From Nanobdellota archaeon (GTDB lineage: Archaea > Nanobdellota > Nanobdellia > Pacearchaeales > GW2011-AR1), in assembly GCA_038044305.1 (NCBI GenBank), contig JBBTAF010000012.1:1-31692 (forward strand): a stretch of DNA of 31,692 bases, read 5' to 3'. Below are positions 16,565 to 23,083 of this stretch, piece by piece. The notes beneath the pieces were generated by a model. That model searched no databases. It worked only from the letters and a program-made list of their open reading frames with translations, and was not told the DNA's origin. Both the position numbers and the translations under genes were made by a program. How positions within the stretch are numbered: the stretch's first letter is position 1; every line of letters starts with the position of its first letter.

Positions 16565-17611
16565 CTATATCTTGCTCCATAAAACATCTATAATTTTTCT
16601 TTTTACTTTCTCACGTAACTTGTATGTATTTCCCCAAATTGCATAGGCTTGCCAACCTTGATAAGACTCATGTATACTATCAAAATTTAGAACTCCTTTT
16701 TCATAAAGTTCAATTTTCCTAAACATTGATTTATAATTCCTTTTTCTCAAGAGTCTTCTGTGATTAAAATTTCTAAAACCTACGAAATCAACTCCTCTTG
16801 AAAGAGAAATAACTCTGGATTTATTAGGATGCAATTCAATTTTTAAATTTTCTTTTAAGAAACCCTCAATTTGTTTTTTCCAAACTTTTAGTTGTTTTTC
16901 AGACTTATGAAAGATAACAAAATCATCAACATATCTGATATAATATTTTACTTTTAGAGTGTGTTTGACAAAGTAATCTAACTCGTTGAGATAGACATTA
17001 GCAAAAAATTGAGAAGTATAATTTCCCAAAGGCATTCCCTTAACTCGTTCTCCCCCCTCCTCCGAAATATTAGTCTGATTATTTAGAATCTGTTTGATGA
17101 GCCAAATAACCTCTTCATCTGCTATTTTCTTTCTCAAAATATTAATTAGAATTTCATGATCAATTTCTTGAAAGTAGTGCTTTATGTCTGCCTTAAAACA
17201 AAAAGCTCCTTGAGAAAAATTTTGGGTAACTTTTCTCTGAAACTTCCTAAATCTCTTCAAAGCGAATGTCGTTCCTTTTCTCATTTGATTAGCACAAGAG
17301 TCATATATAAACAACTTTTCCAAAAAAGGCTTAATTACATTGATTAAAGCATGATGAACTATTCTATCTCTAAAATCTGATTTAGAAATAACCCTAGTTT
17401 TAGGGTCTCTTAGAACAAATGTATTCAATGGGCGAGGTTTGTATGTCTTATTAGTTAATTCATAATGTAAATCTAATAAATTCTTTTCAGAATCCTTACA
17501 AAACTCAATCACATCTTCTCTGCCAGTTTTATCCTTTTTTGCTTTTCTCAATGCAATAAACAAATTTCCCATTGATGCTAGAAAATAATATAATTTATTA
17601 TAGGTTTTCAT
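16565..17611 (-). CDS. DGR reverse transcriptase
   Basis: RDRIVHHAL, ADIKHYF, GMPLGNYTSQFFANVYL, YIRYVDDFV, DFVGF; 348 aa with no maturase or endonuclease extension; adjacent to TR. Confidence 0.96.
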   Translation of the reverse strand: MKTYNKLYYFLASMGNLFIALRKAKKDKTGREDVIEFCKDSEKNLLDLHYELTNKTYKPRPLNTFVLRDPKTRVISKSDFRDRIVHHALINVIKPFLEKLFIYDSCANQMRKGTTFALKRFRKFQRKVTQNFSQGAFCFKADIKHYFQEIDHEILINILRKKIADEEVIWLIKQILNNQTNISEEGGERVKGMPLGNYTSQFFANVYLNELDYFVKHTLKVKYYIRYVDDFVIFHKSEKQLKVWKKQIEGFLKENLKIELHPNKSRVISLSRGVDFVGFRNFNHRRLLRKRNYKSMFRKIELYEKGVLNFDSIHESYQGWQAYAIWGNTYKLREKVKRKIIDVLWSKI

Positions 17612-17639
17612 TGTGAATCAATCATGCATGATTTTAGAG

Positions 17640-17724
17640 CTATTTGACCATTCGAGTTCGAGTTAGCAAGATTCTCGTTGTTCGAGTTAACATTGAGGTT
17701 CCTGTTCAAATACAACCTCGATAG
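17640..17724 (-). ncRNA. DGR template repeat (TR)
   Basis: 85-nt ungapped match to 18026-18110 and 20871-20955, with 15 mismatches, all at TR adenines (coding sense). Reads LSRLYLNRNLNVNSNNENLANSNSNGQI in the VR frame, with 10 AAY codons. Confidence 0.95.
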
Positions 17725-17969
17725 GATAGCCTTTTACTTTTCATGTCACCATCACTTCAGGTTTCATATTTCTATTACTATCTGTTGCGATTGTATTTTA
17801 TAGCTTAAATTAAGCCATAAGCAAAGGGCGTGTAGCTCAATCAAATATACGTGCATGATTGAGAATTTTAATTAAAAATACGCTCTTTTATTAATTTCGT
17901 TGAACGAATATGCCCTATTGAAACATACTATTTTCAAGTTCGCTTTTCATCTTTTCCTACCTTCTCTTC

Positions 17970-18869
17970 CTATGGAGCTCCAACCCCAAATTTTTTCGGC
18001 ACGGTGGCTTCGCCACTGACGCAAACTACCTGACCACCCGAGCCCGAGTAAGCAAGATCCTCGTAGTTCGAGCTAACATCGAGGACCCCGTACAAATACA
18101 ACCTCGATAGTCCAGAATTTATAGTCCATAATTGTCTATTCTTTCCATTTGGATCTGTACTATAAATCTGACTAGGTAATCCAGTTTGAGGATTCATTTT
18201 AGCAGAATCAATATAACTTCCGTTTTTACTCATCAGAATGGGTGCCTCAAAACATAAATCAGGATTGTTTAGAACAAAAGCCAATTTATGAGGAGAATTG
18301 GAATCTTTCTTTAATGATAGAGCATTTAGAGGAATTACATATGCACTATTATTTTTCAGTGAGGGATTATGTCTCCTCAATTGTACAGAAATATTCTTTG
18401 CCAGATACTCATTTGGATCTGCATCAGTTCTCCAAATTAAAGAAGATTCTTCATAATGATTTGCAAATTCAATACTTTTTTTATTAAGAATTGCCTCCAA
18501 TTCTCCTTGAGTTGCAGTTCTTATTTTCATTGGACTTAGAATCTGATTTGCAAGTATAACTGCAAATGGATTTGAGCCAGTAACAACTTTACCACTATCA
18601 TCCCAATTCAACACTTTCAATGCAGAAGCGTCTGCATAATCTCTCTTTACTCTTGCATTATACTCCTGAAGAAAATCTTTTCCAAATTGTCCTTTTAGCA
18701 AGAATGCAGATTTGAAAGTTATGACTCCAGTTGGTACTGGAGAAACTACTCCTGCATTTGGATCAGGTTGAACAACAGGAGCTACTGGAGCAGGAGGCAA
18801 TTTAGCCTCTTGGTTTTTTCTCTCTGCATATCTCATCAGCCAAGATTGATATAAATCAGAGTTGCTCAT
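17970..18869 (-). CDS. DGR target (variable) protein, copy A; probable C-terminal CLec-fold domain
   Basis: C-terminal GLSRLYLYGVLDVSSNYEDLAYSGSGGQVVCV carries the VR; Pro-rich linker near the N-terminus. The CLec fold is inferred from known archaeal DGR targets. Confidence 0.92.
   Translation of the reverse strand: MSNSDLYQSWLMRYAERKNQEAKLPPAPVAPVVQPDPNAGVVSPVPTGVITFKSAFLLKGQFGKDFLQEYNARVKRDYADASALKVLNWDDSGKVVTGSNPFAVILANQILSPMKIRTATQGELEAILNKKSIEFANHYEESSLIWRTDADPNEYLAKNISVQLRRHNPSLKNNSAYVIPLNALSLKKDSNSPHKLAFVLNNPDLCFEAPILMSKNGSYIDSAKMNPQTGLPSQIYSTDPNGKNRQLWTINSGLSRLYLYGVLDVSSNYEDLAYSGSGGQVVCVSGEATVPKKFGVGAP
18004..18016 (-). promoter_or_regulatory. DNA hairpin 3' of VR-A (putative DGR homing signal)
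   Basis: GTGGC-GAA-GCCAC, 9 nt downstream of the VR; contains the GCGAAGC mini-hairpin; absent after TR. Confidence 0.75.
18026..18110 (-). repeat. DGR variable repeat VR-A
   Basis: 70/85 identity to TR; 11 A>G and 4 A>T changes. Confidence 0.95.
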
Positions 18870-19011
18870 TATTTTCCTCCTCTGATTTAAGCAAAATGTC
18901 TAAACCTTGTTCGAGTGCGTGACTTTTATTTCTAAACTTGCCAAGTTCAACTAAGTTTTCAATTAGTTTTATCTTTTCTCCATCTATACTAATACTCAAT
19001 TTTTGTTTCAT
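18856..19011 (-). CDS. Ribbon-helix-helix (CopG/Arc/MetJ-like) DNA-binding protein, 51 aa (absent from the ORF track)
   Basis: MKQKLSISIDGEKIKLIENLVELGKFRNKSHALEQGLDILLKSEEENNEQL*: beta-strand KLSISI, helix, GKFRNKS turn, helix. ATGA overlap with the vWA stop codon. Confidence 0.8.
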   Translation of the reverse strand: MKQKLSISIDGEKIKLIENLVELGKFRNKSHALEQGLDILLKSEEENNEQL

Positions 19012-20795
19012 TCTGAACCTCCAATGATTTTAGGACTTTGTTTATAATAACTAGATACAAATGACACCATTGCTTTTGATAAGTCATCGTCTCCATTTAC
19101 ATTTACAACTGGAATGCCTATTCCCTTCAAGTAATTAGAGAAAGCAGTATCTCCGCCTATCTGAATGTGAGCATAATCTGATGTTCTAACCTTCGCCTCG
19201 AACCTTGTCTTTTGTGTATCATCTATACTAAATTCTCCATCAGAAATAGATAATACTAAAGAGTTCTCTTCCAATTCACTTTCCAATCCATTAATATCTA
19301 AAGAAGTTCCTCCAGAAGGTTTAGTTAATAATGACTTTGCAACAAGTGCAGAATTGCCTCTTACACTAGACTCTCCAGAGAATCCTATAACTCTATTCTC
19401 GATATACTGCCCAACTCCCTGTCTTTCGAAAAAATTGTCTATTCCGAAATATCCTTTCAGAGCAAAATGATGCTTGCTATTATCACCCCATGAAATATAA
19501 CTTGTATTTCCAATATTCACAGGATTTCCTGATGCATCTGTTTCATTTTTAGTATTCAAAGCCATACTTCCAGACCTATCTATTAAAGCCAACTTGAAAT
19601 TTGGAAATTTGTGAGGATGCTTTTTATATGAAACTGGATAATCAATTTGATGTTTTGTAGTTCTTACTTCCCATTCTCCATCTTTTAGTCCTATTCCTTT
19701 AAATTTGAATTTTCGTTCATCCTCTTTGACAAATCTTCTTCCAAATCTAACTAAAGGCATTGACTGACTTGCAGAATAATGAGTTGTTTCAACTGGAACT
19801 TCTTTTGAAATTCTTCTATATAAATCATAAAGTTGCTCTTCCAAGTTTCTATGAGCCAATGGAACTTCACCTGCCTGATACCTACCAAATGCAACATTCT
19901 GTCTATTAATAGGCATTTTCATTTCTCTGTCAAATGGATTTCTTTCCTCGGAATTTTCATCTCCTTCACCAGAGCCAAACATTTTTTGCTTTGGAATGTC
20001 ATCCAACAGTTTACCCAAATTAACTGCAAAATTATATCCCAATTGACCCCACATTTCTGCTCTTTGCTTTAAATCCCTCCGATTGAACAATTTCTCAAAT
20101 CCCTTCTTTTCATGGAGTCTAAAAACATTTTCTTCCTGAACCATAGTTTTCATTTCCCCTAAAAATCCATTCACTGCTTCATCTACTTCTTCTTTTCCAG
20201 TAAAAAATCTCCTCAACAAAGTATAATCAGAAGCATTACCTGCCAATCTCAAATTAATTTTCACAAATGCTTCATAAAAAGGATTGAACTTGCCCCTTTC
20301 TGAATTAACAATTCCCTGATTATTCCAAAATAATGTCTGCCCTGCAAAATTTGTATGCCTTCTACAATTAACATTATCTAAAACATCTTCAAATGCATTT
20401 GTTACATATGTTTCGAGTCCTTTTTTCCCAACTGAATCCAGTCCCCTAGTAATTGCATCTTTTATTCTTTCATGCGTTTCTATATCATAAGGACATCCGT
20501 ACCTTTCTCCAACTTTATTTTCCCTGTGTCCTGTTTCATGTTGCAAAATATCTTCTCCCACTTCCAGCAAGACATCTTTCATACTTTTCTTATATACAAA
20601 CGATTGAGTTTCCTCATCTGGAACTAAATTCAAATCTTCTCCATATGAAATACCTATTTCTTTCCAATCGGTAGTAATATATGCTGCAAGTGATTTCCCT
20701 CTAACTTCTTCCACTCTTAATCTAGTTCCAACTAAACCTATCCTATTCTTTTTCTTTTCGAGTTTTTGTTTAATTTGTTCAAGTTCGCTTTTCAT
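19008..20795 (-). CDS. vWA-domain protein with an N-terminal HExxH metallopeptidase-like region
   Basis: MIDAS elements LALIDRSGSM, GGTS, SISDGE; N-terminal ILQHETGH followed by NAFEDVLDN. Confidence 0.8.
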   Translation of the reverse strand: MKSELEQIKQKLEKKKNRIGLVGTRLRVEEVRGKSLAAYITTDWKEIGISYGEDLNLVPDEETQSFVYKKSMKDVLLEVGEDILQHETGHRENKVGERYGCPYDIETHERIKDAITRGLDSVGKKGLETYVTNAFEDVLDNVNCRRHTNFAGQTLFWNNQGIVNSERGKFNPFYEAFVKINLRLAGNASDYTLLRRFFTGKEEVDEAVNGFLGEMKTMVQEENVFRLHEKKGFEKLFNRRDLKQRAEMWGQLGYNFAVNLGKLLDDIPKQKMFGSGEGDENSEERNPFDREMKMPINRQNVAFGRYQAGEVPLAHRNLEEQLYDLYRRISKEVPVETTHYSASQSMPLVRFGRRFVKEDERKFKFKGIGLKDGEWEVRTTKHQIDYPVSYKKHPHKFPNFKLALIDRSGSMALNTKNETDASGNPVNIGNTSYISWGDNSKHHFALKGYFGIDNFFERQGVGQYIENRVIGFSGESSVRGNSALVAKSLLTKPSGGTSLDINGLESELEENSLVLSISDGEFSIDDTQKTRFEAKVRTSDYAHIQIGGDTAFSNYLKGIGIPVVNVNGDDDLSKAMVSFVSSYYKQSPKIIGGSE

Positions 20796-20814
20796 CTTTT
20801 CCTACCTTCTCTTC

Positions 20815-21714
20815 CTATGGAGCTCCAACCCCAAATTTTTTCGGCACGGTGGCTTCGCCACTGACGCAAACTACCTGACCACCCGAGCCCGAGTAAGCAA
20901 GATCCTCGTAGTTCGAGCTAACATCGAGGACCCCGTACAAATACAACCTCGATAGTCCAGAATTTATAGTCCATAATTGTCTATTCTTTCCATTTGGATC
21001 TGTACTATAAATCTGACTAGGTAATCCAGTTTGAGGATTCATTTTAGCAGAATCAATATAACTTCCGTTTTTACTCATCAGAATGGGTGCCTCAAAACAT
21101 AAATCAGGATTGTTTAGAACAAAAGCCAATTTATGAGGAGAATTGGAATCTTTCTTTAATGATAGAGCATTTAGAGGAATTACATATGCACTATTATTTT
21201 TCAGTGAGGGATTATGTCTCCTCAATTGTACAGAAATATTCTTTGCCAGATACTCATTTGGATCTGCATCAGTTCTCCAAATTAAAGAAGATTCTTCATA
21301 ATGATTTGCAAATTCAATACTTTTTTTATTAAGAATTGCCTCCAATTCTCCTTGAGTTGCAGTTCTTATTTTCATTGGACTTAGAATCTGATTTGCAAGT
21401 ATAACTGCAAATGGATTTGAGCCAGTAACAACTTTACCACTATCATCCCAATTCAACACTTTCAATGCAGAAGCGTCTGCATAATCTCTCTTTACTCTTG
21501 CATTATACTCCTGAAGAAAATCTTTTCCAAATTGTCCTTTTAGCAAGAATGCAGATTTGAAAGTTATGACTCCAGTTGGTACTGGAGAAACTACTCCTGC
21601 ATTTGGATCAGGTTGAACAACAGGAGCTACTGGAGCAGGAGGCAATTTAGCCTCTTGGTTTTTTCTCTCTGCATATCTCATCAGCCAAGATTGATATAAA
21701 TCAGAGTTGCTCAT
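20815..21714 (-). CDS. DGR target (variable) protein, copy B
   Basis: Identical 299-aa sequence; TAATG overlap with the ATPase stop codon. Confidence 0.92.
   Translation of the reverse strand: MSNSDLYQSWLMRYAERKNQEAKLPPAPVAPVVQPDPNAGVVSPVPTGVITFKSAFLLKGQFGKDFLQEYNARVKRDYADASALKVLNWDDSGKVVTGSNPFAVILANQILSPMKIRTATQGELEAILNKKSIEFANHYEESSLIWRTDADPNEYLAKNISVQLRRHNPSLKNNSAYVIPLNALSLKKDSNSPHKLAFVLNNPDLCFEAPILMSKNGSYIDSAKMNPQTGLPSQIYSTDPNGKNRQLWTINSGLSRLYLYGVLDVSSNYEDLAYSGSGGQVVCVSGEATVPKKFGVGAP
20849..20861 (-). promoter_or_regulatory. DNA hairpin 3' of VR-B
   Basis: GTGGC-GAA-GCCAC, same as copy A. Confidence 0.75.
20871..20955 (-). repeat. DGR variable repeat VR-B
   Basis: Identical to VR-A; adenine-only mismatches to TR. 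Confidence 0.95.
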
Positions 21715-23036
21715 TATTTTCCTCCGCCACTTTGATGTACTTGTTCCACAATTTCTCTAAGCTTAACTCTTGCAGAAGAGTTATCTAATTTATTCTTCTG
21801 AGCATAATCCTCTATCGCTTCTCTTACTGGAGACCATTTTCCCTTAACAGGTGAAATATCATTTAACAAATCTGCATCAGTTACTCCTGCCTCCGCCAAA
21901 GCAACTGCCTCCTCGAGTTTTGAAGATTTTTCAGATATCTCTGTTCTGTTCCCAGAATCGTTTCCAAGAAGAGTATCAAACGCAGAATAAACATCCCCTC
22001 CATGTTCCTGCTCAACATATCTAGGAGCCATTACTCCAGAATATGGAATAGTAAATCTCAAAGCATCCAAAAACAAAGGAATTACTTGAGGATTTTCTCC
22101 CTTTGCTTCTCCAATCATTTGCAAAGCACCTGTAAGAGCTATTGCAGACAAAACGCCTCTAGGAGAAAGAGGAAATAATTTATTTTCATCATTATCAGTT
22201 TTGATTCCTTCCAAATTTGGCCATCTTGAGTCACAGGCAATTTTACTATTTCCCTTTACATTTTCCAAATAGTCAAGTCCTTCAGTAAAATAAACACCTA
22301 AAATAGGAAGAATTGGATGAGTCTCTCTTCCTTTAAACTCTCTATTTAACGCCAAAATTTCTTCTCTTGTAATTCCTTTGGTATTAGTAGGCATATCCGA
22401 TTGAGGACTTCTCTTACCTCTAAAAACATCTAAAAGATTAACTGGTCTTGCTCTATAATCTGGATGATCTAATTTGACAATTAAATGCATTCTGTCTTTT
22501 AGAGCCCTATCAGAATCTGATACTCCCACATACTCACCATCACCCAAGTTTCCAGTTGCAAAACCTACACTATATCCATCAGTTCCCAAATTCAATATTC
22601 TACCATCGTGAACCAATTTTCCATCGAAAAAGTCGAAGAAATAGTTCTGTACTATTGGAGGTGCTCTATTTAGCTCATCTATAAAGAACAAGTTCTTTCT
22701 CACATTTTCAGTCAATTGAACTAAATCTCTGTCAGTTACTGCATTTTTAATTTTATCAAGTCTCATTTGCTTTAGTAATTCAGAAGGCTCAAAATCAGGT
22801 CTTCCCATAGCATAGCAAGAAGAATCTGGAAAACATCCTATTAAGTCATTGCCAAGCTGAGTTTTTCCTCTTCCAGTGCCTCCAACAAAATAGGCATTCA
22901 GTCTTGCAATTAATGGAGCTTTTACTAAAATATCTCTTGCAGTAAAAGATGCACCTCCAAGAGAGATTACTCTATCATTTTGATAACTTCCACTTTCCAA
23001 TTTTTCTATTGCTAACCTATTATTTTCGGATACCAT
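21714..23036 (-). CDS. MoxR-like AAA+ ATPase
   Basis: Walker A GGTGRGKT, Walker B FFIDELNRAPP, sensor-1 ATGN, DRALKDRM arginine-finger region; vWA partner in the same operon. Confidence 0.88.
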   Translation of the reverse strand: MVSENNRLAIEKLESGSYQNDRVISLGGASFTARDILVKAPLIARLNAYFVGGTGRGKTQLGNDLIGCFPDSSCYAMGRPDFEPSELLKQMRLDKIKNAVTDRDLVQLTENVRKNLFFIDELNRAPPIVQNYFFDFFDGKLVHDGRILNLGTDGYSVGFATGNLGDGEYVGVSDSDRALKDRMHLIVKLDHPDYRARPVNLLDVFRGKRSPQSDMPTNTKGITREEILALNREFKGRETHPILPILGVYFTEGLDYLENVKGNSKIACDSRWPNLEGIKTDNDENKLFPLSPRGVLSAIALTGALQMIGEAKGENPQVIPLFLDALRFTIPYSGVMAPRYVEQEHGGDVYSAFDTLLGNDSGNRTEISEKSSKLEEAVALAEAGVTDADLLNDISPVKGKWSPVREAIEDYAQKNKLDNSSARVKLREIVEQVHQSGGGK

Positions 23037-23049
23037 ATTTTAACTTAAA

Positions 23050-23083
23050 AGTAGTATAAAATACTACTATTTAAATCTTTCTA
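23050..23083 (-). promoter_or_regulatory. BRE/TATA promoter of the ATPase operon with an adjacent 8-bp inverted repeat (operator candidate)
   Basis: Minus strand TAGAAAGATTTAAATA (23083-23068); AGTAGTAT-AAA-ATACTACT at 23050-23068, between the TATA box and the ATG. Confidence 0.55.

Follow-up and report, generated by a model that had tools for sequence, protein, structure and literature searches.

The window analysed here, a stretch of 31,692 nucleotides from a small groundwater DPANN archaeon, carries on its minus strand a compact series of seven elements. ORF analysis resolves them, in the order that the initial annotation of this DNA had described, as a MoxR-like AAA+ ATPase, a variable protein (target B), a protein with a HExxH motif and a vWA domain, a ribbon-helix-helix (RHH)-like protein, a second variable protein (target A), a template repeat (TR) and a reverse transcriptase (RT) of the DGR type; all the coordinates given below are on this strand. 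The junctions are also as described: the ATPase and target B genes share one base (TAATG), and the vWA gene, which starts after a gap of 19 nt behind target B, overlaps the RHH gene by ATGA. The RHH gene and target A in turn overlap by 14 nt. Thirty-two nucleotides upstream of the ATPase ATG there is a TATA-like box, TTTAAATA (23068..23075), which is the sole intergenic minus-strand match to this motif within the cassette. It should be viewed as a candidate operon promoter only, because its frequency in the window (18 matches for 14 expected) shows no enrichment. Taken together, the gene overlaps and this single box suggest that the cassette is transcribed as one operon. The probable RHH protein (51 aa, 18856..19011) gives weak matches to CdrS (7e-4) and ParD (0.014), both of which fall short of the family cut-offs; its homologues are found in 11 related loci directly before the ATPase and in two behind the vWA gene.

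The ATPase (440 aa, 21714..23036) has an intact Walker A (GTGRGKT) and Walker B (DE), and residues G52, T54, G55, G57, K58, T59, D120 and E121 are invariant. It had been called simply MoxR, and this label must be qualified: the protein is MoxR-like and belongs with AAA_5 (7e-8), but the Pfam model of the MoxR family proper, AAA_3, scores only 0.27. The same is seen in the relatives, whose ATPases match AAA_5 in 24 of 24 cases, bpMoxR in nine and AAA_3 in one, and the nearest Atlas clusters of our protein are AAA_5, AAA_3 and MoxR-like.

The partner protein (595 aa, 19008..20795) consists of an N-terminal helical HExxH domain (about residues 1-335) and a C-terminal vWA domain (about 395-586). 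Pfam gave no match for it, vWA models included, nor for its 26 relatives and five outgroup proteins. The vWA fold, together with an invariant MIDAS, is nevertheless solid: the modelled domain is matched by Foldseek with a probability of 1.0 and by VIA with Z up to 14.8 over residues 395-586, the matches including NorD, the MIDAS domain of Rea1/MDN1 and BchD, and the MIDAS is complete (DxSxS; D406, S408, S410, T497, D519) and unchanged in 26 sequences. The N-terminal domain is another matter. Its HETGH motif retains H86 and H90 invariantly, and E87 is a glycine in 10 of the 26 relatives. Since this is the catalytic glutamate, a peptidase activity of the HExxH effector first proposed becomes doubtful. 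Atlas provides leads only for residues 1-335, namely DUF2201_N, CobT, SprT, M48 and M78; DUF2201-type proteins (putative metallopeptidase plus vWA-like domain) and phage CobT-like proteins, the closest of the clusters that bear a name, display the same order of a HExxH domain followed by a vWA domain, and this likeness too is a lead only. No PADLOC model matched the vWA protein or the targets.

The two targets, B (299 aa, 20815..21714) and A (17970..18869), are identical, and each has a helix at its N-terminus, followed by a Pro-rich linker and then by a domain resembling C-type lectins (CLec) with the VR in its C-terminal part. The CLec-type fold attributed to them earlier finds support at modest Z scores. 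The best structural matches of the model in VIA are all DGR variable proteins (TaqVP 5vf4, Z 6.3; nanoarchaeal AvpA 5ioo, Z 5.6; TvpA 2y3c, Z 4.8), which have the C-terminal VR and the AAC-rich TR codons in common with the target and differ from it by the lack of the extra N-terminal helix and Pro-rich linker; dozens of C-type lectins and FGE-like enzymes follow. There is no detectable sequence similarity between the target and any solved structure. We consider the support for the fold as moderate, because Z remains below 8 and Foldseek gave no match, so that the variable proteins are probably, in our model, C-type-lectin-like. It had also been claimed that the target lacks a signal peptide and TM helix; indeed, no cassette protein contains a TM or signal-like stretch, and of the 101 proteins that occupy the same slot in relatives 100 are likewise free of one. 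Such a lack would also be compatible with unconventional export in DPANN.

The RT (348 aa, 16565..17611) matches RVT_1 at 3e-22 and the phage RT family phrog_1423 at 1e-111. The TR (17640..17724) ends 28 nt upstream of the RT start. Searches of Pfam and NCBIfam matched no cassette ORF to an Avd family; not all DGRs possess this accessory protein. The TR can be aligned over 85 nt with the VR of target B (20871..20955) and that of target A (18026..18110), and all 15 mismatches fall on TR adenines, which occupy 29 of the 85 positions. The TR codons are rich in AAC, and the VR encodes residues ~254-281 of the 299 in the target. The RT/TR unit rewrites about 28 C-terminal codons in each of the variable proteins, at positions templated by adenines. 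Furthermore, a contig from the public groundwater run X4 carries an alternative VR with 13 differing sites, all at TR adenines, at a depth of 3.4 of 6.6, or about half. As judged from assembled contigs and not from raw reads, diversification of the VR is ongoing in the population; the DGR is intact and probably active. Nine nucleotides after each VR, still within the ORF, there is a candidate hairpin, GTGGC-GAA-GCCAC, with a 5-bp stem and a GAA loop (18004..18016 for VR A; 20849..20861 for VR B, placed from the exact duplicate), the fold energy of which is no better than that of shuffled sequences.

The identity of the two targets deserves some attention. It extends over 948 nt without a single difference, VR included (17933..18880 for copy A, 20778..21725 for copy B), starting at the GGAGG ribosome-binding site and ending 37 nt beyond the stop codon, and also covers the initial 18 nt of the vWA gene. 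One could suppose that the second target, or failing that the identity of its VR, arose as an artefact of assembly, a single target having been duplicated or two targets with different VRs having been collapsed onto one path. An active DGR should indeed diversify the VR, the Logan contigs end at the repeat borders and across the VR, a second VR is present in run X4 at about half depth, and near-identical target pairs of relatives still differ in their VR. We take this explanation seriously and would put it a little short of an even chance. However, both 3' junctions are represented in public contigs, that of target A with the TR side (at 17933, in contigs from three runs) and that of target B with the vWA gene, and two targets are the usual layout in relatives. 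It is therefore very likely that the two copies are real, the doubt being limited to the identity of their VRs. Within-locus target pairs of relatives range from 58% to 97.5% nucleotide identity, and in two loci (L041 and L019) the pair is identical save in and just after the VR. In our best explanation, the targets on either side of the vWA gene undergo homogenisation recurrently, copies A and B being the most recent instance. Target copies would then evolve by repeated homogenisation around this gene, followed by re-diversification of the VR alone.

A DPANN setting had been predicted for this arrangement, and the relatives that we recovered are indeed Pacearchaeota, Woesearchaeota and Nanoarchaeota. 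Looking for RT and TR loci beside MoxR-like and vWA orthologues, as had been suggested, yielded adenine-specific TR/VR pairs in 33 related loci, with the RT downstream in 24 and a divergent RT upstream in nine. An RT is present in 13 of the 16 loci that were fully sampled, and the ATPase precedes the vWA gene in all 30 DPANN loci with at least 2.5 kb of upstream sequence. The VRs of these relatives lie in small genes that flank the vWA gene on one side or on both, and the slot between the ATPase and vWA genes holds from one to 10 target-type genes, the extreme being L057 with 10 in tandem. Far from usually lacking a target, DPANN ATPase/vWA pairs nearly always have target-type genes, in most cases with a DGR adjacent, and the initial annotation was right that a DGR target occupies a slot in an AAA+/vWA operon, both here and in the related loci. 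DGR-linked loci span the entire DPANN vWA clade; in the bacterial outgroup, the ATPase and vWA genes adjoin directly, and both a slot gene and an RT are absent. What is new here is that the ATPase/variable protein/vWA layout is conserved across DPANN and is not a one-off.

The cassette is nonetheless only one of the uses made of DGRs in this phylum. Among 200 high-quality genomes, this type of RT is found in 13 of the 22 with the vWA protein versus 42 of the 178 without it. The vWA cassette thus occurs in 11% of sampled genomes and in about one in four of the genomes that have this type of RT; because 42 of the 55 DGR-bearing genomes of the phylum are without the cassette, we regard it as one DGR use among several.

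Since the cassette recurs in dozens of related archaea, we think that it corresponds to a conserved machine with a hypervariable binder. The gene order, maintained in dozens of genomes, is (RHH), MoxR-like ATPase, at least one variable protein, the HExxH plus vWA (MIDAS) protein, another variable protein, TR and RT. In the known pairs NorQ/NorD, CbbQ/CbbO and BchI/BchD, and in Rea1, the MIDAS grips an acidic residue of a partner which the AAA+ ring then remodels. By analogy with these MoxR-type pairs, the variable lectins are most likely cytoplasmic binders, which would be partners or clients of the ATPase/vWA pair. The conserved N-terminal peptide and flexible linker of each lectin could act as a handle; a ligand, most plausibly of viral or other foreign origin, would be bound by the lectin and then read out or acted on by the vWA/ATPase pair. 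Our preferred reading, to which we assign a probability of about one half, is therefore that of a DGR built into an operon conserved in DPANN, the variable lectins forming a repertoire of cytoplasmic binders on which the vWA/ATPase machinery would act or report. That the variable protein is a sensor is plausible; we purely infer the distribution of sensor, transducer and effector roles among the components, and none of the cassette proteins is recognisable as a toxic or signalling effector. One may go further and imagine an anticipatory, immune-like recognition, with two to more than 10 cytoplasmic lectin receptors, continually rewritten by the DGR, that would dock through their conserved N-terminal peptide onto a MIDAS-vWA adaptor and a MoxR-like motor, the capture of a viral or host molecule eliciting a cellular response. 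We regard this extension as rather unlikely.

The most resistant of the competing views of cassette function is that the ATPase and vWA protein form a dedicated chaperone which folds, matures, clears or delivers lectins working elsewhere, for instance in host-cell attachment, with no sensing or signalling at all. Characterised MoxR-vWA pairs are chaperones or maturation factors, and NorD, BchD and the MIDAS of Rea1 are among our structural matches. The absence of a death or signalling effector domain from the cassette and the missing catalytic glutamate in 10 of 26 relatives point in the same direction, the tandem array of L057 would suit a machine with many clients, and reviews have tied DPANN DGRs to host interaction (PMC6349945, PMC8632793). 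Against this view, a signal peptide, TM segment or anchor is absent from the targets here and from 100 of 101 in relatives, and neither the ORFs nor the Pfam matches reveal secretion or surface-structure genes in the cassette. We keep this chaperone hypothesis as a tentative one, well short of probable. It is much less credible that the cassette is part of a virus or provirus, with the lectins as receptor-binding proteins and the ATPase/vWA pair helping virion or tail assembly. Its distribution is admittedly patchy (11% of sampled genomes and none of four genomes of the same family), both the ATPase and the HExxH domain have viral clusters in their Atlas neighbourhoods, and the catalogue of known MoxR-vWA pairs in PMC7159879 includes one tail-assembly pair from an archaeal virus. 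On the other hand, no capsid, portal, terminase or integrase gene was seen near the cassette, PHROG matches are limited to the RT and the ATPase, the flanks encode PAP2, TspO and an SFM1-like methyltransferase, and there is no tRNA in the window. Finally, that a DGR and its targets landed by chance beside an unrelated ATPase/vWA operon would agree with the occurrence of most DGRs of the phylum without the cassette, but is very improbable given that both major subclades of DPANN, and loci with either of the two RT positions, retain the interleaved succession ATPase, target, vWA, target, that the ATPase is present in 30 of 30 loci, and that target genes overlap or abut those of the ATPase and the RHH protein.

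No other reverse transcriptases are as common in DPANN archaea as those of DGRs, and the targets of DGRs have usually been guessed to be surface adhesins for host contact. With the present cassette, the molecular context of one whole class of them becomes defined: they are small proteins free of export signals, whose genes are interleaved with those of a MoxR-like motor and a MIDAS adaptor, and whose function could be addressed with three purified proteins. The archaeal variant is new, but bacterial MoxR-vWA systems with DGR-varied CLec sensors have already been published (Kaur 2020, PMC7159879; Doré 2024, PMC10907252), so that the cassette is a variant of a known idea. What it does is to carry this idea from multicellular bacteria to tiny archaeal symbionts, where, according to the published view, a link of this kind is absent. 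If the immune-like reading were true, the system would be the first of its kind among archaea and among genome-reduced symbionts, and would break the proposed tie of DGR-diversified conflict systems to multicellularity.

The resemblance to the VMAP ternary conflict systems of cyanobacteria and gammaproteobacteria (PMC7159879, PMC10907252) is real: there too, the genes of a MoxR-like ATPase and of a vWA component accompany a DGR-diversified CLec/FGS domain, for which the role of an intracellular sensor has been proposed, and in clade 5A of Doré (PMC10907252) a MoxR-like ATPase lies, as here, directly upstream of a free-standing target; a small DNA-binding protein is also present in that clade. 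The differences are equally clear. The lectin of the cassette is a separate small protein in one to 10 copies, and it is encoded apart from the vWA protein here and in all related loci, whereas the DGR-linked VMAP forms fuse the vWA to a variable FGS/CLec domain; our vWA protein has an N-terminal HExxH domain; and the hosts are genome-reduced DPANN archaea instead of multicellular bacteria. Searches with Pfam (E up to 10) for VMAP, trypsin, TIR, caspase, cyclase and adaptor families matched no cassette protein. As it contains neither a VMAP component, a vWA-MoxR-associated protein which has VMAP domains and carries an effector or adaptor at its N-terminus, nor a known death effector, the cassette is not a member of the VMAP ternary system, and the ternary layout originally invoked does not apply in the form described.

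The MoxR/vWA chaperone pairs (NorQ-NorD, CbbQ-CbbO, BchI-BchD, RavA-ViaA and Rea1/midasin) also have the gene of an AAA_5 or MoxR-like ATPase beside that of a MIDAS-vWA protein. The cassette is set apart from them by very distant sequences (no Pfam vWA match, AAA_3 at 0.27), by the gene for a hypervariable protein between the two and by the attached retroelement. As for AvpA, the literature that we examined contains no link of this protein to an ATPase/vWA pair. A last possible likeness concerns the candidate hairpin behind the VR: a GRA-loop hairpin within the ORF has been described for nanoarchaeal DGRs (PMC4372165), and in three related loci (L041, L019 and L014) hairpins with GAA, GGA or GCA loops and other stems are found at the same place.

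The cassette is a single minus-strand run, and the ORF listing, translation and inspection of the junctions bear out the arrangement read by the initial annotation. The ATPase gene (440 aa; 23036-21714) shares one base of its stop with the start of target B (299 aa; 21714-20815), giving TAATG; a gap of 19 nt, containing a purine-rich stretch, leads to the gene of the HExxH+vWA protein (595 aa; 20795-19008), which overlaps by ATGA with that of an RHH-like protein (51 aa; 19011-18856), itself overlapping target A (299 aa; 18869-17970) by 14 nt, and the template repeat (TR; 17724-17640) and reverse transcriptase (RT; 348 aa; 17611-16565) complete the run. The RHH-type matches of the 51-aa protein in profile searches were weak only. 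A TTTAAATA box lies 32 nt 5' of the ATPase start and is only a candidate promoter of the cassette, because the motif is not enriched across the window. A tRNA scan found no tRNA genes in the window.

This interleaved order is widely conserved. Scanning one genome per species with an alignment of the vWA family yielded 65 loci, nearly all from Woese-, Pace- or Nanoarchaeota, and their neighbourhoods were read from six-frame ORFs and iterated HMMER searches, with adenine-biased repeats sought on both strands. The ATPase is upstream in every one of the 30 DPANN loci that have at least 2.5 kb 5' of the vWA gene, and in all 33 loci with a TR and RT the variable repeats (VRs) occur in small genes flanking the vWA gene, most commonly one per side; DPANN orthologues of the ATPase/vWA pair nearly always come with target-type genes. 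An RT is present in 13 of the 16 loci sampled on both sides; TR and RT follow downstream, as in the window, at 24 loci, and a divergent RT with its TR stands upstream of the ATPase at nine. At 11 loci an RHH homologue lies directly 5' of the ATPase; in the subclade to which the window belongs it follows the vWA gene. In the vWA tree, DGR-linked loci are scattered throughout the DPANN clade and the position of the RT has switched several times. In three loci of the bacterial outgroup (L061, L063, L065) the ATPase directly precedes the vWA gene, with neither a target-type slot gene nor an RT. The two genes are 2 nt apart in L061 and L063, and 209 nt apart, with a sole 84-aa ORF between them, in L065; these outgroup ATPases (535-607 aa) exceed the DPANN ones in length, with additional sequence at the C-terminus.

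The slot between the ATPase and vWA genes holds one to three of the small genes, and ten in one locus. Iterated profiles for target-type genes strayed into RT ORFs, because some of these had been called with the TR inside, and were replaced by all-against-all clustering of the slot ORFs, which placed 79 in one sequence cluster alongside a few smaller clusters. The ten-gene array is in a woesearchaeal MAG (L057:1644-9996; L023 comes from the same MAG), where tandem target-type genes of 266-294 aa, with about 60% mutual nucleotide identity, lie between the RHH/ATPase and vWA genes, with no RT on the flanks sampled. The closest relative of the window's cassette, in a member of the Pacearchaeota (L001:7806-12815), has a vWA protein 71% identical to that of the window and shares its gene order, with RHH likewise downstream of the vWA gene; each of the two target genes is broken into two ORFs, there is no RT within 10 kb, and the cassette may be decaying. 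Among 200 high-quality genomes drawn evenly from the phylum, 22 (11%) have the vWA protein and 55 (27.5%) the window's type of RT, which is found in 13 of the 22 genomes with the vWA protein as against 42 of the 178 without; related genomes are not independent, and we take this co-occurrence as an indication only.

The targets carry a clear DGR signature. Each VR shows 15 mismatches to the TR in an 85-nt alignment, every one at a TR adenine, and is followed within the target ORF by a candidate hairpin (5-bp stem, GAA loop), an arrangement described for nanoarchaeal DGRs (PMC4372165). None of the 28 homologues in the target family has a Pfam domain, and the hypervariability in their alignment coincides exactly with the VR. 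The model of the target (pLDDT 76) comprises a helix (residues 3-21), a disordered Pro-rich segment (23-50) and a globular domain (51-287). Although Foldseek gave no significant match for this model in the PDB, and neither the target sequence nor the family profile matched PDB sequences, an exhaustive VIA search placed the DGR variable protein TaqVP first (Z 6.3) and nanoarchaeal AvpA third (Z 5.6); TvpA scored Z 4.8, and almost all remaining rows were C-type lectins or FGE-like proteins. The Z values are modest and the match list is consistent, so that the CLec fold first proposed is upheld as a prediction of modest strength. Beside its vWA gene, the nanoarchaeal SAG AAA011-G17 (L048) encodes a target-type protein, which is not the crystallised AvpA. 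The proposed lack of a signal peptide or TM helix also holds: no TM-like or signal-like stretch is present in the five cassette proteins, and 100 of 101 slot proteins of relatives have no TM-like stretch.

Targets A and B are identical base for base across 948 nt (17933-18880 and 20778-21725), both VRs included; the repeat starts at the GGAGG ribosome-binding site and ends 37 nt beyond the stop. It extends into the vWA gene by 18 nt, and downstream of copy A this gene start meets a stop, so the tract originates from the context of copy B. Public Logan contigs from four groundwater runs contain both 3' junctions (TR side to target A, vWA gene to target B), so the two copies are very likely real; the contigs are interrupted at the borders of the repeat and over the VR. 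In run X4 another VR occurs at roughly half the depth of its surroundings; it differs from the window at 13 positions, 13 of 13 at TR adenine sites, and the VR is therefore being diversified within the population. This half-depth VR also permits the reading that the two copies may in reality differ in their VRs, the assembler having threaded both through one path.

Within-locus target pairs of relatives range from 58% to 97.5% nucleotide identity, and two loci, L041 and L019, have pairs that match completely over the first 80-90% of the gene, with differences solely in and just after the VR. The exact duplicate of the window would be the extreme of this series, which probably reflects repeated homogenisation of target pairs across the vWA gene, by gene conversion or duplication, after which the VR alone would be re-diversified by the DGR. 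Two further variants were seen in the runs. A cluster of up to seven differences in runs X3 and X4, within the constant region of the target gene (18336-18390), could be strain variation or a true copy difference hidden by assembly. In X1, X3 and X4, contigs have a TR-like stretch (17641-17736) with eight differences and join it to 17422, skipping 218 nt; none of the eight departs from a TR adenine, so this is not DGR-type variation, and the stretch may be a strain variant or come from a related TR/RT unit in a different genome.

The "MoxR ATPase" of the initial annotation stands as MoxR-like rather than as MoxR proper: the protein matches AAA_5 (7e-8) and AAA_3, the MoxR family itself, only at 0.27, and its closest Atlas clusters are AAA_5, AAA_3 and MoxR-like. 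AAA_5 was matched by 24 of 24 relatives and bpMoxR, the MoxR of a described MoxR-vWA ternary system, by nine of the 24; the Walker A and B residues are invariant in the family alignment. Searching PDB sequences with the ATPase profile gave weak, non-discriminating matches to ClpB, ClpC, Hsp104, MCM and NorQ.

The 595-aa protein, which like 26 relatives has no Pfam match, was modelled at pLDDT 83. Residues 395-586 form a vWA domain in searches against the PDB (Foldseek probability 1.0, VIA Z up to 14.8), with matches that include NorD of the NorQ-NorD complex, the MIDAS domain of Rea1/MDN1 and BchD, and the MIDAS residues D406, S408, S410, T497 and D519 are invariant among relatives. The vWA fold of the proposed vWA/HExxH effector is secure; a peptidase role for it is doubtful. 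In the helical N-terminal domain, which bears a HETGH motif, H86, H90, E92, C101 and H108 are invariant or almost so, whereas 10 of the 26 relatives have Gly in place of the catalytic E87; the family thus keeps a metal site but does not keep peptidase chemistry throughout. The closest named Atlas clusters (DUF2201_N, CobT, SprT, M48 and M78 zincins) are leads only. Both PDB searches with the full model matched mostly the vWA domain. A likeness of the vWA-family profile to the sarbecovirus spike RBD (positions ~142-190; PDB sequences, best 2e-6) was short and low-scoring, and was discarded as chance.

In MoxR-type pairs already characterised, an acidic residue of the partner is held by the MIDAS, and the AAA+ ring remodels that partner. 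The variable lectins would be partners or clients of the vWA/ATPase pair, and their conserved N-terminal peptide and linker are a candidate handle for it; several of the N-termini sampled among slot proteins show an IPxxFMG..A..R.L-type peptide ahead of a low-complexity linker. We favour, with a probability of about 0.5, the view that the lectins are a cytoplasmic recognition repertoire read out by the vWA/ATPase pair. The initial annotation's recognition module is partly supported: its DGR target in the slot of a putative AAA+/vWA operon is confirmed and extended to related archaea, and its HExxH effector is doubtful. Pfam and PADLOC found neither VMAP nor a known effector in the cassette, and the lack of a recognisable effector, with the non-conserved HExxH glutamate, counts against a sensor. 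The main rival, which we regard as less likely, makes the pair a chaperone or delivery machine for lectins acting elsewhere, but an export signal is absent. Co-folding of the vWA protein with a target scored 0.00, which we count neither for nor against interaction.

Reviews tie DPANN DGRs to host attachment (PMC6349945, PMC8632793). DGR-diversified CLec/FGS sensors are known in the MoxR-vWA-VMAP systems of cyanobacteria and gammaproteobacteria (PMC7159879), and in Thiohalocapsa and other multicellular bacteria (PMC10907252), the latter including a form in which a free target is directly preceded by a MoxR-like ATPase and accompanied by a small DNA-binding protein. The cassette is therefore an archaeal variant of a principle already known from bacteria, namely a DGR-varied sensor joined to MoxR-vWA. 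It differs from the bacterial MoxR-vWA-VMAP systems in its free-standing, multi-copy lectins, in the HExxH domain of its vWA protein, in the lack of VMAP and of a known effector, and in its DPANN hosts. Outside Paul et al. 2017 (PMC5436926), the principal survey of DPANN/CPR DGRs, where an earlier depiction is possible, we found no published description of it.

The window's genome (658 kb) has no second ATPase or vWA gene in its 78.5% complete assembly, and contains three RTs of the window's type for one cassette. The extra DGR-type RTs, at G000:C38:401-1417 and G000:C4:18096-19103, are 63% and 55% identical to the cassette RT, respectively. Elsewhere in this genome (G000:C1:23115-23432), a 243-aa ORF matches positions 51-156 of the target profile (E 4e-8) and may be distantly paralogous to the lectin's constant part.
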